Assembly (NCBI GenBank): GCA_045538455.1
Contig: JAZSRL010000009.1
Location: 14,875-78,874, forward strand
Direction: 5' to 3'
DNA length: 64,000 bases
Origin: Clostridia bacterium
Lineage (GTDB): Bacteria; Bacillota; Clostridia; Christensenellales; UBA1242
Below the pieces are notes generated by a model that saw only the letters and a program-made list of their open reading frames with translations, made no database searches and had not been told where the DNA came from. This document shows positions 16,450 to 21,417 of this stretch, in pieces. Positions within the stretch are counted from its first letter, which is position 1; every line of letters begins with the position of its first letter. A program made the translations under genes and the position numbers.

Positions 16450-16478
16450 TTGACTAAAACGGGATTCTCATGTATAAT
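16450..16478 (+). promoter_or_regulatory. sigma-70-type promoter (TTGACT-17 nt-TATAAT)
   Basis: Near-consensus -35 and -10 boxes with a 17-nt spacer, about 18 nt upstream of the riboswitch P1 helix. Confidence 0.6.
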
Positions 16479-16494
16479 GAAAATACAATTAAAT

Positions 16495-16646
16495 AGCTAT
16501 CAAGAGTGTTAGATGTTAAGGGACCAGCCCAATGCTAACCAGCAACCTGTCGGGAAAGACAAGGTGCTAAAACTGAGTGATAGGCGTAAACCATTTTACG
16601 AATCATGTTTTCCTTCGGCTCTATCACTCTTGGTAGGGTTTTTTAA
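16495..16646 (+). promoter_or_regulatory. SAM-I (S-box) riboswitch aptamer plus expression platform
   Basis: The aptamer (~16495-16585) has the conserved strings in order: CTATCAAGAG ... GGGACCAGCCCAATG ... CCAGCAACC ... AAGGTGCTAA ... GAGTGATAG. Downstream, CTATCACTCTTGGTAG can pair with either P1 strand and is followed by GGTTTTTT. Confidence 0.7.
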
Positions 16647-17373: not shown

Positions 17374-17940
17374 ATGAGATTTATTAAAGAAAAATTAAAT
17401 GAAAATAAATTATTTGAAACAGGTCTTGCAAGACTTTGGCAACATACCAAAGATACATCTACTTTTGCAATTATTGGTACACAAGACCAAGATACTAAAG
17501 AAAGTAGATACAATGACATGATGGACTTAATTTTGAAATTATCAAGAAAGAAAGCAGGCATTGGATTTAATAATATAGATGGGTTATACACTTATGATAA
17601 TGGACAACAAGGTCGTGAAGATTCTATCATTATTTATAATCTATCCAAGGAAGATGCTCTTGATATTGGTAGAAAACTAAATCAAGAAAGTATTGTTTGG
17701 AAAGATGACAGTTTCTTTGGGTTAATTTATTGTAAAGATGGCAGTGTTGATATGACCTTTAAGAATAACTTAAAAAATATGAAGTTCAGTGAAGAAGATA
17801 TAAAAAATTTTGCTTCAAAGATTGCTGGCAAAGGTCATGCCAAGAATGCACCATTTGTTTTTGAATCATATTTCAGAGAATATAATAAACAAATTCACAA
17901 AGCTGAAAACCATCTTATTTTTAGATGTAAATGTAATTAA
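17374..17940 (+). CDS. hypothetical protein (first of the small-gene series)
   Basis: 188-aa ORF starting MRFIKEKL. Its TAA stop is part of the conserved junction 18-mer. Confidence 0.55.
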   Translation: MRFIKEKLNENKLFETGLARLWQHTKDTSTFAIIGTQDQDTKESRYNDMMDLILKLSRKKAGIGFNNIDGLYTYDNGQQGREDSIIIYNLSKEDALDIGRKLNQESIVWKDDSFFGLIYCKDGSVDMTFKNNLKNMKFSEEDIKNFASKIAGKGHAKNAPFVFESYFREYNKQIHKAENHLIFRCKCN

Positions 17941-17955
17941 GGAGATAAATTAAAG

Positions 17956-18297
17956 ATGAAATTGATTAAAGAAGAATTGCTAATGGAAATGTCTAACTTA
18001 TTACCAAGAAGAACTGGGTTACCTTATTCAGTCTGGGTAGATGATGCTGGCATGGATAGAGAAGTTTCACATAATATCCTTAGATTGAAATATGGCCCAT
18101 CATATGATGATTGTGTTACAATTCCGTTTTTTGATAAAAAAGATTTATATGAAGCTATTGGTGAGCTTAAAAAAGGCAAACTAAATATGAAGCAAATATC
18201 CAAGTGGATAAATCTTAATTATACTAATCTAATTAAATTTTATACTAATGCTGATTATGACTTTAAGGATTTTATAGATAATATGAAAACTATTTAA
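17956..18297 (+). CDS. hypothetical protein
   Basis: 113-aa ORF starting MKLIKEEL, preceded by the conserved junction. Confidence 0.55.
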   Translation: MKLIKEELLMEMSNLLPRRTGLPYSVWVDDAGMDREVSHNILRLKYGPSYDDCVTIPFFDKKDLYEAIGELKKGKLNMKQISKWINLNYTNLIKFYTNADYDFKDFIDNMKTI

Positions 18298-18348
18298 AGT
18301 AAGTGTAGAATTATAATTATATATCAATCATAAGGAGATAAATTAAAG

Positions 18349-18717
18349 GTGGGATTTATTAAAGAACACAGTTTAATTGAACAAGCTCATATTGCTGATA
18401 TAAACGAAAAGGAAGTAATTGTTTATACTCGTGAAGGTGGTAATATCCCTCACATTCATATTTTAAATCCACAAGATAAAACATTTGAATGTTGTGTGCG
18501 ATTGGATAAGGCTGAATATTTTTGTCATGGTAATAAGCAAAATACACTGAATACAAAAGACAAAAAAGAATTTGTTGCATGTATGAATAAATCAACTAAA
18601 ACTAGAGTTGGTCATTTTACAAATTGGGAAATAGCGGTACTGATTTGGAATCAAGGAAATTCTCAAGCACAAATCTCTGATGAAATTAAAATGCCTAATT
18701 ATTTACAATTAAAATAA
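18349..18717 (+). CDS. hypothetical protein (GTG start)
   Basis: 122-aa ORF starting (M)GFIKEHS, preceded by the conserved junction. GNIPHIHI weakly recalls the DUF4160 PPHFH motif. Confidence 0.5.
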   Translation: MGFIKEHSLIEQAHIADINEKEVIVYTREGGNIPHIHILNPQDKTFECCVRLDKAEYFCHGNKQNTLNTKDKKEFVACMNKSTKTRVGHFTNWEIAVLIWNQGNSQAQISDEIKMPNYLQLK

Positions 18718-18739
18718 TAAATAAGGAGATAAATTAAAG

Positions 18740-19207
18740 ATGAAATTTTTATTAGTAGAACAAGCTTTGTCTATTAGGGAAATTAAAAGACAATTAGATG
18801 GGTTAGGAAAAAACCTGCGTTTACATTTAATTAAATTATTCATTTGGCGAGATGTAGTTAATACCAGTGACTACTGGGAAGATGAGGTAGTTGGCATGAT
18901 TGATGACTTGCCTTATGTAAAGGGGTCTAAAAAATTCCCTAAAACTTCTGTAATCTACAACAGCATTTGGGGTAACTACAAAGATAGTTTTAATACAAAA
19001 CTGCCTAACACTATAAAGAGGTTAATGTATGATTACTCAAGTTTTCCTAAAATTACTATAGAAGATATTTCAGTGGATAATTTATTTACATTTTGTGAAG
19101 AGTATTGTTTATGGTTATCTGAGTATTTATCAAAATATGGTAGTCTAGATGTAGAAGAAGCTCACAACAGGTTAATAGGACTCTTAAAGAAATACCCTAT
19201 AAAATAA
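18740..19207 (+). CDS. hypothetical protein
   Basis: 155-aa ORF starting MKFLLVEQ, preceded by the conserved junction. Confidence 0.55.
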   Translation: MKFLLVEQALSIREIKRQLDGLGKNLRLHLIKLFIWRDVVNTSDYWEDEVVGMIDDLPYVKGSKKFPKTSVIYNSIWGNYKDSFNTKLPNTIKRLMYDYSSFPKITIEDISVDNLFTFCEEYCLWLSEYLSKYGSLDVEEAHNRLIGLLKKYPIK

Positions 19208-19222
19208 GGAGATAAATTAAAG

Positions 19223-19647
19223 ATGATACAAGAAATAATTACAGATGAAGAAATCTTAGGTCAACGTTCAGATGAAATTGATAATGGAGAAACTTATGCA
19301 GAAAAATAACTTACAACAATTAGTTGTTGTCAAAAGTTGAGTTCGTAAAAATAGTCAAATTGAGCCCAACGACAACAAATGAACAGCAATTAAAGAAAAC
19401 AAAGTAGCAAAAGAAATCATTCAACTGCTGATAGATGAATTAGATAAAAATTATAATGATGAGGAGAAAAATACAAATGACAACAAATAGTAAAACAAAT
19501 TATGCAGTAGCAGACTGCAATGAAAATAATAAGCAAATTTATAAATCCCCTGAAGACGAATTGATGGAAAATATTATAAACATTTTTAATTCCTGACTTG
19601 AAAAACTTGCCGAACATTATGATATAAAGGAGAAAACCAATGAATAA
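19223..19647 (+). pseudogene. short ORFs interrupted only by frame change and TGA codons (decayed genes, or genes that originated under a TGA=Trp code)
   Basis: 19223-19309 encodes 28 aa behind the conserved junction. The ORF from the ATG at 19272 has in-frame TGAs at 19338 and 19380 and ends with TAG at 19488. The ORF from the ATG at 19477 has an in-frame TGA at 19594 and ends with TAA at 19645-19647, overlapping the recombinase ATG at 19640. Confidence 0.4.
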
Positions 19648-21358
19648 CAACGAAACAATTACAAGAGCTGTTGCCTATTGCAGGTTTAGTAGCCACAATC
19701 AAAGAGAAGAAAGTATTGATGCTCAACTAAGAGCAATTCACGAATATGCACGACAAAACAATATGGTCATCATTAAAGCATATTGCGACAGTGCTATCAG
19801 CGGAACAGGTAGTGCTGACCGTAAACAATTCCAACAAATGATTTCTGATGCTGGCAAAAGAGAATTTACTAAGGTCATTGTTCATAAATTGGACCGCTTT
19901 GCCAGAAATCGTAATGATTCTTTTGGTTATAAATTAGAACTCAAAAAACATGGTGTTGATGTAGTTTCCGTTTTGGAACACATTGATGACAGTCCTGAAG
20001 GCTTTTTAATGGAAGGTCTTTTGGATATGTTAGCCGATTTCTATTCAAGAAACTTGGGTCGTGAAGTTATCAAAGGCATGAAAGAAAATGCCTACAAATC
20101 TAAATTCAATGGCAGTCGCCCACCTTTGGGTTACTGCCTTGTCCCACGAAAAGATGAATATGGCAATTTGGTATTAAGCCAAAGAACGGGTACCGAACTG
20201 CACGATTTAGCCATTGATAAGGAAAAGGCAATTATCATTAAAAAGATTTTTGATATGGTACTTGAACGCAAAACTTATCCTGAAATTGTTGCCTATTTGA
20301 AAGAAAACGATTATAAGACAAACTCTAATAAGGATTTTACCTACGAAGATTTGTTGAGAATTTTACGCAACGAAAGGTATACGGGTACTTACATCTTTAA
20401 TCGTCGTAAAAAGATTATTGGTAAAAATGGTCGCTATACTTATGACCGCACCAATGCCGAAGAAACTATTAAAAACGAAAATGCGTTTCCTGCCATTGTT
20501 TCCCGCGAACAATTTAATGCTGTGCAAAAACTTTTGGATTCGCGTGTTAGGAAAACACCAGGATTAAGAATTGTTGATTATTTACTTGCTGGTAAAATTA
20601 TTTGTGGTGAATGCGGGCATCCTTTTAGCGGAGAAAGAAAACGCAAGAACTTTGCCGATGGTACAACTTATTGGATTTACTATCGCTGCAAAAGCAATCA
20701 CAACAAAACAGATAAACTAACAACCAAAGCCAATTGTCATAATAGCAGTATCCGCAAAGATGAAATTGAAGCCTTTGTGTTACAACAAATTACTGACTTA
20801 ATTTTCAGCGAAAAGAACTTTGACAAGATTTTTGAATTTTATCAAAACTATAAAACAGAACTTTTGTCTAACGAACATGCTACTTCGGCGATTGAAAAAG
20901 AAATCAGCAACATTGAAAAGAAAATTCAAAACCTTTACAATGCCATTGCTGACATGGGTTACACCGAACAAATCAAATTGCAAATTTCTGGTTACGAAAA
21001 GAAGAAATTAGACTTAACGGAAAAACTTGCCGAAGCCAAATCTTTTCAACTACCAACGATTAACAAAGACAAATTGAAAGCATCTTACGATAAATTCAAA
21101 TACGAATTTCAAAACAACATATTGCCAAACAACAAAGATTTGGTTGATATTTTCTTAAACAAAGTTGTGGTTTATAAAGACCATGTCGAAGTTTATCTCA
21201 ATGTGTTGCCTGCACTGAAATGTGAAGACTATGGCTTAGAGATTGACTTAAACCTATTAAAAAGCGAAGAGGACGGAGAAAATCCATCCTCTTTGTTGTT
21301 TTTATCCCCAGAACGTGTATCTGCAGGCTCTAACTCTGCCAACACAAACTTAATTTGA
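19640..21358 (+). CDS. large serine recombinase (integrase)
   Basis: 572 aa with an N-terminal resolvase domain (AVAYCRFSSHNQREESIDAQ, VHKLDRFARN), a recombinase domain, a zinc ribbon (CGECGHPF...YYRC) and a C-terminal coiled coil. Confidence 0.9.
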   Translation: MNNNETITRAVAYCRFSSHNQREESIDAQLRAIHEYARQNNMVIIKAYCDSAISGTGSADRKQFQQMISDAGKREFTKVIVHKLDRFARNRNDSFGYKLELKKHGVDVVSVLEHIDDSPEGFLMEGLLDMLADFYSRNLGREVIKGMKENAYKSKFNGSRPPLGYCLVPRKDEYGNLVLSQRTGTELHDLAIDKEKAIIIKKIFDMVLERKTYPEIVAYLKENDYKTNSNKDFTYEDLLRILRNERYTGTYIFNRRKKIIGKNGRYTYDRTNAEETIKNENAFPAIVSREQFNAVQKLLDSRVRKTPGLRIVDYLLAGKIICGECGHPFSGERKRKNFADGTTYWIYYRCKSNHNKTDKLTTKANCHNSSIRKDEIEAFVLQQITDLIFSEKNFDKIFEFYQNYKTELLSNEHATSAIEKEISNIEKKIQNLYNAIADMGYTEQIKLQISGYEKKKLDLTEKLAEAKSFQLPTINKDKLKASYDKFKYEFQNNILPNNKDLVDIFLNKVVVYKDHVEVYLNVLPALKCEDYGLEIDLNLLKSEEDGENPSSLLFLSPERVSAGSNSANTNLI

Positions 21359-21417
21359 ATCAAAAGAAATAGTCTGTGATAAGAGTAGACTGTTTTCTTT
21401 AATTACATATTCACGAT

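Follow-up and report, generated by a model that had tools for sequence, protein, structure and literature searches.

In-frame TGA codons at conserved tryptophan positions in small genes beside a Clostridia serine recombinase: a putative opal lock on mobility functions

Reading frames upstream of the recombinase

The 64,000-nucleotide (nt) stretch of Clostridia DNA analysed here (hereafter the window; host genome G000, 0.9 Mb, 36.7% G+C, 92% complete) carries a mobile island with a large serine recombinase gene that is immediately preceded, at positions 19223-19647, by two short open reading frames (ORFs) in which tryptophan (Trp) appears to be written as TGA. We call them orf64 (P0001) and orf56 (P0002), the first and second ORFs of an earlier note made from this sequence alone, and we call a third, smaller ORF ahead of them orf28 (Table 1). 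As that note described, TGA is the only codon that breaks either frame. The one opening at ATG 19272 closes with TAG at 19488-19490, and the one opening at ATG 19477 closes with TAA at 19645-19647, in an 8-nt overlap with the recombinase ATG. The note had read the first ORF from ATG 19272. Its frame holds, and its start is probably ATG 19296, because GGAG lies 6 nt upstream of this codon and independent gene calls (P0006) use the same start. A ribosome-binding site serves each ORF, and stops and starts overlap at the junctions, with 14 nt shared by the end of orf28 and the start of orf64 at ATG 19296 and another 14 nt by orf64 and orf56. Decoded with Trp, the peptides across the three UGA sites would read LVVVKSWVR, NSQIEPNDNKWTAIK and IFNSWLEK. 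The recombinase gene has a strong ribosome-binding site of its own, contains a single Trp codon, TGG, and is intact under the standard bacterial code (code 11).

Table 1. Features of the recombinase operon in the window (positions of the whole stretch)
Feature	Positions	Strand	Basis
Operon head: promoter-like site, SAM-I/IV riboswitch and terminator hairpin	16450-16640	+	Rfam RF01725; promoter match
Promoter-like site	16450-16478	+	Near-consensus, 11/12 positions matched
SAM-I/IV (S-adenosylmethionine) riboswitch	16492-16616	+	Rfam RF01725, 50.3 bits vs gathering score 41.1
Terminator hairpin	16617-16640	+	After the riboswitch
Fourth cassette junction, ATAAGGAGATAAATTAAAGATG (ribosome-binding site and start codon)	19204-19225	+	4 copies: 17938, 18331, 18722, 19205
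orf28, 28 amino acids (aa), MIQEIITDEEILGQRSDEIDNGETYAEK	19223-19309	+	ATG is the conserved junction ATG; translation
orf64, 64 aa, two putative TGA-coded Trp; alternative start 19272	19296-19490	+	Homologues P0006-P0011, dN/dS, codon usage
In-frame TGA 1, column KSW (orf64)	19338-19340	+	TGA in 12/12
In-frame TGA 2, column NDNKW (orf64)	19380-19382	+	TGA 10/12, TGG 2/12
orf56, 56 aa, one putative TGA-coded Trp	19477-19647	+	Homologues P0004, P0005; paralogy alignment
In-frame TGA 3, column FNSW (orf56)	19594-19596	+	TGA in 7/7 orf56-bearing sequences
Large serine recombinase, 572 aa, ends in TGA	19640-21358	+	Pfam Resolvase, Recombinase, Zn_ribbon_recom; PHROG 95 integrase 8e-114

Two other readings of this region were rejected. 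A single frameshifted gene spanning 19223-19647 disagrees with the presence of a ribosome-binding site for each frame and with the conservation of the separate ORFs in homologues. The idea that RNA structure couples translation of the recombinase to that of the ORFs ahead of it disagrees with the unstructured nature of the region (folding z = +1.5), in which no structure masks the recombinase's own ribosome-binding site. Orf28 differs from its counterpart in the related locus L001 by three synonymous and two conservative changes, and its counterpart in G050, a genome of the same genus as the host, is a 35-aa variant that diverges past codon 20.

TGA at conserved tryptophan columns in the island and its sister elements

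Open frames alone are weak evidence for genes at this place. When 19223-19647 was shuffled 10,000 times with its dinucleotides preserved, 19% of the shuffled sequences had a run of at least 76 codons free of TAA and TAG, 2.2% had a pair of such runs, of at least 76 and 67 codons, and the host genome contains 232 TGA-containing ORFs of at least 45 aa under code 4 (TGA read as Trp) outside long genes. In the shuffling check proposed by the earlier note, a single run of this length is thus not rare and the pair is rarer; it is the comparative evidence that decides. The finding counts as real because the homologues are conserved, evolve under purifying selection and exchange TGA with TGG at Trp columns.

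Relatives of orf64 form six protein clusters in the protein collection (P0006-P0011, 65-98% identity), and all contigs that encode them give the protein only with TGA read as Trp, as the earlier note had surmised for the two ORFs. To its question whether homologues have Trp or TGA in the same alignment columns, the answer is yes. In a codon alignment of 12 homologous sequences the KSW column is invariably TGA, whereas the NDNKW column is TGA in ten sequences and TGG in the other two (L117 and L118); a further Trp, in an N-terminal extension of the homologues, is TGA in L117 and TGG in L118. Because TGA and TGG alternate at two columns, TGA must here mean Trp. The FNSW column of orf56 is TGA in each of the seven sequences that carry this gene. 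Divergent orf64 pairs have ratios of nonsynonymous to synonymous substitution rates (dN/dS) of 0.13-0.34 at dS 0.7-1.1, with changes mainly at third codon positions, and the codon-usage score of orf64 is +0.40 bit per codon. No start codon lies downstream of the orf64 TGAs, so that the conserved C-terminal part needs readthrough. In this the locus resembles programmed readthrough genes, with in-frame stops that are conserved (12/12, 10/12 and 7/7) and a downstream frame under purifying selection. None of the 12 orf64 copies has suffered additional damage in the form of a frameshift, TAA or TAG, and every in-frame stop in these ORFs and in the sister elements described below is a TGA at a Trp column, while a simple mutation model expects only 12-14% of the nonsense mutations in these ORFs to be TGG-to-TGA changes. 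On this comparative evidence, we conclude that orf64 and orf56 are real protein-coding genes with Trp written as TGA.

By alignment, orf56 is paralogous to the C-terminal helix of orf64. It has near-identical homologues (P0004 and P0005), and the orf56 loci L120 and L135-L137 also yield a protein only under TGA = Trp. The gene is dispensable, being absent from L117, L118, L138 and L139, and L119 contains an 81-aa version without Trp. In L002, the recombinase of which is 43% identical to that of the window, a 52-aa ORF lies across the recombinase start; it has two TGA and no TGG codons and aligns with the second Trp column. In L138 (719-904) and L139 (336-521), orf56 is deleted and orf64 carries the orf56 tail (...EEKTNE), a variant consistent with recombination between two GGAGAAAA repeats that resemble ribosome-binding sites.

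The orf64 product is small, acidic and predicted to be helical, and its AlphaFold model consists of three helices with a predicted local distance difference test score (pLDDT) of 69. The bases that follow the three TGAs of the window are G, A and C, T being also seen in sister elements, and no shared readthrough motif or structure was found around the TGAs of either. Selenocysteine at these codons was rejected, as the host genome has no tRNA-Sec and homologues have TGG, not cysteine codons (TGT/TGC), at the TGA columns. The orf64 profile found no relatives in IMG/VR or in JGI metagenome contigs, and no further members in a set of 5.8 billion proteins. Pfam and PHROGs returned only noise for orf64 and orf56, without a match to HTH_17 (PF12728). 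A Foldseek search of the orf64 model against the PDB and a blastn search of 17900-21400 against a phage collection gave no match, and a DNA search of 201 host-family genomes yielded only low-complexity noise, except in G050.

In G050, past the point where orf28 diverges (codon 20), the island continues into an excisionase (Xis) gene with a helix-turn-helix domain of the HTH_17 family, followed by a TGA-free tyrosine integrase gene. This excisionase has 62 aa and matches HTH_17 (28.8 bits vs a cut-off of 27) across a TGA at a conserved Trp. We surveyed 301 genomes of the host family for excisionases and replication proteins (Rep). Among 46 HTH_17 excisionase homologues, four have one in-frame stop, in each case a TGA at the conserved Trp (two copies in G050, and those of G261 and G044), and the adjoining integrases contain 7-8 TGG each and no TGA. 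A second case is a subfamily of rolling-circle Rep proteins (L140-L145 and L002 74-898; genomes G050, G148, G274, G066, G134 and G247), in which all eight close members and two distant ones have one to four in-frame TGAs. Two neighbouring invariant Trp columns (motif W-L-x-x-H-W-x-H-G) exchange TGA and TGG among the members, none of which lacks a TGA at a Trp column. As a control, about 50 full-length tyrosine integrase homologues were inspected and no internal TGA was found in them. Gene-specific TGA gating recurs across the host family.

The operon of the window runs from the promoter at 16450 through the SAM-I/IV riboswitch, the terminator, a 174-aa gene, four cassettes, orf28, orf64 and orf56 to the serine recombinase, and no terminator-like site was found on the + strand between 16664 and 21358. 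The cassettes (17938-19225) are four small genes, each preceded by the same 21-nt junction, ATAAGGAGATAAATTAAAG(A/G)TG, which provides a ribosome-binding site and a start codon. Their array is reordered in L001 (1-2300), missing from L135 and of a different number in L134, and the junction seems to be a recombination point for it. By contrast, all loci with the recombinase share an unchanged block of junction, orf28, orf64 and recombinase, and in 12 of 12 loci orf64 or its homologue either overlaps the recombinase gene or lies immediately before it. The exception to this block is L134, which has lost the region from the first TGA of orf64 to the 3' end of the recombinase gene: at 1946-2119 of this locus, the first 22 codons (from ATG 19272 to the first TGA) are fused to the last ~35 codons of the recombinase, the gene of which is gone, with the joint at a shared AAAAGT.

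Other species of the genus carry the island at 97-99% identity, although a stretch of host genes is only ~74% identical between L001 and the window. This element identity across species argues for recent transfer between standard-code hosts. Pfam and PHROGs recognised a methyltransferase (MTase), an HNH nuclease and the recombinase on the island, and no packaging or structural genes. The SAM-I/IV riboswitch also occurs in the G050 sister island (L086 11382-11505); a general link between the riboswitch and TGA gating was rejected, since it is found only in these two islands and not in L002 or L121-L123. A match to Rfam HPnc0260 in L122 (2239-2372; 62.9 bits vs a gathering score of 59), which overlaps a tRNA-Ile gene of the other strand, is probably spurious.

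Genetic code of the host and candidate reader of UGA

The host uses the standard code, and TGA gating is gene-specific. Its gene for release factor 2 (RF2), prfB, scores 416 bits, above the cut-off, and encodes a protein with the SPF and GGQ motifs. Among the 40 tRNAs of the genome there is a single tRNA-Trp, which has a CCA anticodon, and none with a UCA anticodon was found. The 551 ORFs of at least 200 aa, which together make up 81% of the genome, contain 2230 TGG codons and end in TAA (422), TGA (95, or 17%) or TAG (34). The earlier note was thus right that this host stops at TGA, and three hallmarks of code 4 are missing from it: RF2 is present, a tRNA-Trp(UCA) was not found, and Trp is written as TGG while TGA serves as a stop. 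The island follows the same usage, with 26 TGG and no internal TGA in its large genes and TGA as the terminal stop of its XRE, MTase and recombinase genes, and a genome-wide scan of the host revealed no other credible TGA-split coding region. At the family level, RF2 exceeds the curated cut-off in 149 of 151 genomes and occurs in all 58 genera; the L002 genome, G261 and G044 have it as well. The host prfB (C7:99713-100702) is a single open frame from which the programmed +1 frameshift site is absent, and most genera of the family score higher, at ~480-520 bits.

Genes ending in TGA have an in-frame back-up stop nearer than those ending in TAA (median 6 vs 9 codons, p = 0.02), a hint of some leakiness of UGA in this host. 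A or T follows 79% of its genuine TGA stops.

No suppressor tRNA was found in the host genome or in 14 element loci. The host tRNA-Trp(CCA) has a U11-A24 pair together with a normal 5-bp anticodon stem (G27:C43). The Hirsh UGA-suppressor mutation, G24A, gives rise to the same U11-A24 pair, and tRNA-Trp with a 4-bp anticodon stem raised UGA readthrough in experiments; both kinds of variant are known in standard-code bacteria (PMC13092985). A24 occurs in 10 of 11 TGA-bearing genomes and in 4 of 12 controls (Fisher p = 0.009, kinship ignored), and a 27:43 mismatch, which leaves a 4-bp stem, in 4 of 11 and 0 of 12, respectively (Fisher p = 0.037, kinship likewise ignored), the search for gated genes in the 12 control genomes having been non-exhaustive. 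The mismatch is A27:C43 or A27:A43 in L156, L157, L158 and L160 (genomes G066, G261, that of L002, and G247), and the host's own genus combines a 5-bp stem with A24. As for precedents, UGA is read as Trp at ~6% in Bacillus subtilis, according to Lovett 1991 as cited in PMC6316719, and the intA gene of Salmonella ST64B contains an internal TGA for which Trp readthrough under stress was proposed (PMC12455584). The lack of a suppressor tRNA, the A24 and 4-bp-stem variants, the back-up stops and these precedents together lead us to favour the host tRNA-Trp as the reader.

A putative opal lock and competing readings

We lean towards a reading in which the TGAs form an opal lock, opened at a low rate by readthrough with the host tRNA-Trp, on functional accessory genes of the recombinase, probably directionality factors. 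RF2 would terminate at UGA, so that most ribosomes would stop within orf64 and orf56, and a small fraction would insert Trp by near-cognate reading of UGA by tRNA-Trp(CCA). Each TGA would act as an attenuator lowering the output ~10- to 100-fold per codon, a figure inferred from the ~6% readthrough in B. subtilis. The recombinase, with its own ribosome-binding site and no such TGA, would be synthesised normally, and with the orf64 and orf56 products kept scarce, excision would be rare. Judging by position, these products most likely serve the serine recombinase as directionality or excision-control factors, because they stand where the excisionase stands in sister elements (Xis in G050); their small genes adjoin the recombinase gene and would be co-transcribed with it. 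Since TGA is found in Xis, Rep and accessory genes and not in integrases, the lock would bear on excision, replication and accessory functions, never on the integrase.

Several points weigh against this reading. Orf64 has no homology to a characterised directionality factor in Pfam, PHROGs or a Foldseek search of the PDB, the latter with a low-confidence model (pLDDT 69). The normal 5-bp stem of the host tRNA-Trp leaves A24 as the only argument from this tRNA for leakiness, and A24 is also found in a third of the controls (4/12); the association of A24 and 4-bp stems with gated genes ignores phylogeny and uses controls searched non-exhaustively. With two TGAs, orf64 output is expected to be ~0.1-0.4% if readthrough is 3-6%, and so low an output may point to a stronger, conditional suppressor. 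A suppressor tRNA may lie in the unbinned part of the host genome, which is 92% complete, and the divergent homologues L117-L120 are on short contigs (≤1.3 kb) without host assignment.

Known systems share some of these features. Recoded prophages of standard-code gut bacteria (Garnet/Topaz, code-4 clades), in which recoding has been proposed to separate integration from the 'active' phase (Borges et al., 10.1101/2021.08.26.457843), likewise live in standard-code hosts and have an integrase free of the recoded stop beside other genes that are recoded. Unlike them, the element studied here is a small non-phage island in which structural genes were not found; recoding touches just one or two small genes (in sister elements, Xis and Rep) instead of most of the genome, no suppressor tRNA or release-factor gene is carried, and TGA is also a genuine stop in the element. 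As in ST64B intA (PMC12455584), an integrated element whose host has RF2 carries an in-frame TGA within a gene for site-specific recombination, insertion of Trp is assumed and readthrough would limit the amount of full-length protein. However, in ST64B the integrase itself is gated, in one lineage, whereas here the recombinase is spared, the accessory genes are gated and the TGA is conserved across divergent homologues, where it alternates with TGG. Reading of UGA as Trp without a cognate suppressor and in competition with RF2 also links the island to the near-cognate cases described above for tRNA-Trp(CCA), as the host tRNA-Trp shares A24 and several element-bearing relatives share the 27:43 mismatch. 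The readthrough protein A1 of phage Q-beta is another product of near-cognate UGA reading by tRNA-Trp(CCA). These cases represent general leakiness or a C-terminal extension, while the UGAs of the island are internal, at conserved Trp and apparently selected. Insertion sequences of the IS1/IS3 type limit transposase synthesis by programmed frameshifting, and the island would resemble them as a mobile element that keeps its own mobility protein scarce through low-efficiency recoding, although by stop-codon readthrough and on accessory factors of a site-specific recombinase. A gene-specific opal lock of this kind was not found described in the literature searched.

A different, unlikely explanation is a conditional code switch, in which the genes stay silent until a UGA suppressor arrives in trans, either a tRNA or an RF2 antagonist, from a code-4 phage or another element; the island would then sense infection and excise or act only at that time, like a satellite. 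This would resemble the recoded prophages in their combination of a standard-code integrase with other, recoded functions, and TGA-recoded Firmicutes phages are known from animal guts (both in Borges et al., 10.1101/2021.08.26.457843). It would also account for the retention of at least one TGA in all members of the Rep subfamily, which suggests selection for a lock and not mere weak expression, and it would avoid the nearly nil output that plain leakiness would give through the two orf64 TGAs. Nevertheless, a suppressor tRNA was found neither in the host genome nor in the 14 element loci, the orf64 family has no relative in IMG/VR, the island has no packaging or structural genes recognised by Pfam or PHROGs, and the tRNA-Trp features that accompany the elements favour reading by the host.

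It is decidedly unlikely that the TGAs serve as a conditional sensor of the decoding state, with orf64, orf56, Xis and Rep made in useful amounts only if UGA termination is weak. A TGA-recoded phage bringing a suppressor tRNA or an anti-RF2 function could be one trigger, which would make the island a 'code parasite' or infection sensor. For this island, another could be starvation for SAM, which would open the riboswitch at 16492-16616 and leave RF2 under-methylated and poor at termination; PrmC is present.

Very improbable, in our opinion, is the origin put forward by the earlier note, that the ORFs are relics that evolved in a code-4 host or phage, of Mollicutes type, and are now carried untranslated. 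All three Trp codons of orf64 and orf56 are indeed TGA, L117-L120 lack a host assignment and the recombinase, with one Trp in 572 aa, says little about the code in which it evolved. Against this, RF2 occurs in every identified host, and the other island genes have 26 TGG and three TGA stops. No homologues of orf64 or orf56 were found in code-4 (Mollicutes-type) lineages, and the relatives of the recombinase are Clostridia, matches to 'Mycoplasma' metagenome-assembled genomes being partial and at most 31% identical. The ORFs are also not 'dead in this host', as the note had supposed: purifying selection has acted over dS of ~1 with the TGAs retained, none of the 12 copies has acquired a frameshift, TAA or TAG, and elements 97-99% identical are spread across species. 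The region 19204-19660 as a whole (457 nt, which besides the two ORFs covers the junction, orf28 and the initial 21 nt of the recombinase gene) shows 98% identity to L001, compared with 96.7% for the whole match over 19204-21354. Finally, the same pattern of TGA at Trp appears in Xis and Rep genes beside TGA-free integrases in RF2-positive genomes.

Chance open frames or pseudogene decay in AT-rich DNA, the ordinary decay that the note had offered as its alternative, are hardly credible, for although TAA/TAG-free runs of this length are not rare in shuffles (19% for one, 2.2% for both) and TGG-to-TGA is a common transition under AT-biased mutation, the homologues are conserved with dN/dS well below 1, TGA and TGG alternate at the same columns, each ORF has its ribosome-binding site and overlapping junction, and the in-frame stops are all TGA at Trp columns against the 12-14% modelled.

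Returning to the opal lock, the case looks, from the sequence data, like a serine-recombinase version of a gene-specific lock on mobility functions that is found in a Clostridia family using the standard code. It suggests that small integrative elements of RF2-containing gut bacteria may use the genetic code as a regulatory device, gene by gene, and that such recoding would extend beyond large recoded phages and organisms whose code is reassigned. It would also offer a possible role for the widespread tRNA-Trp variants (A24 and 4-bp stems) of standard-code bacteria (PMC13092985). For genome annotation, the implication is that gene callers using code 11 would miss or truncate excision, replication and recombinase-accessory genes, so that the elements carrying them would look defective and recoding would be taken for pseudogenes.

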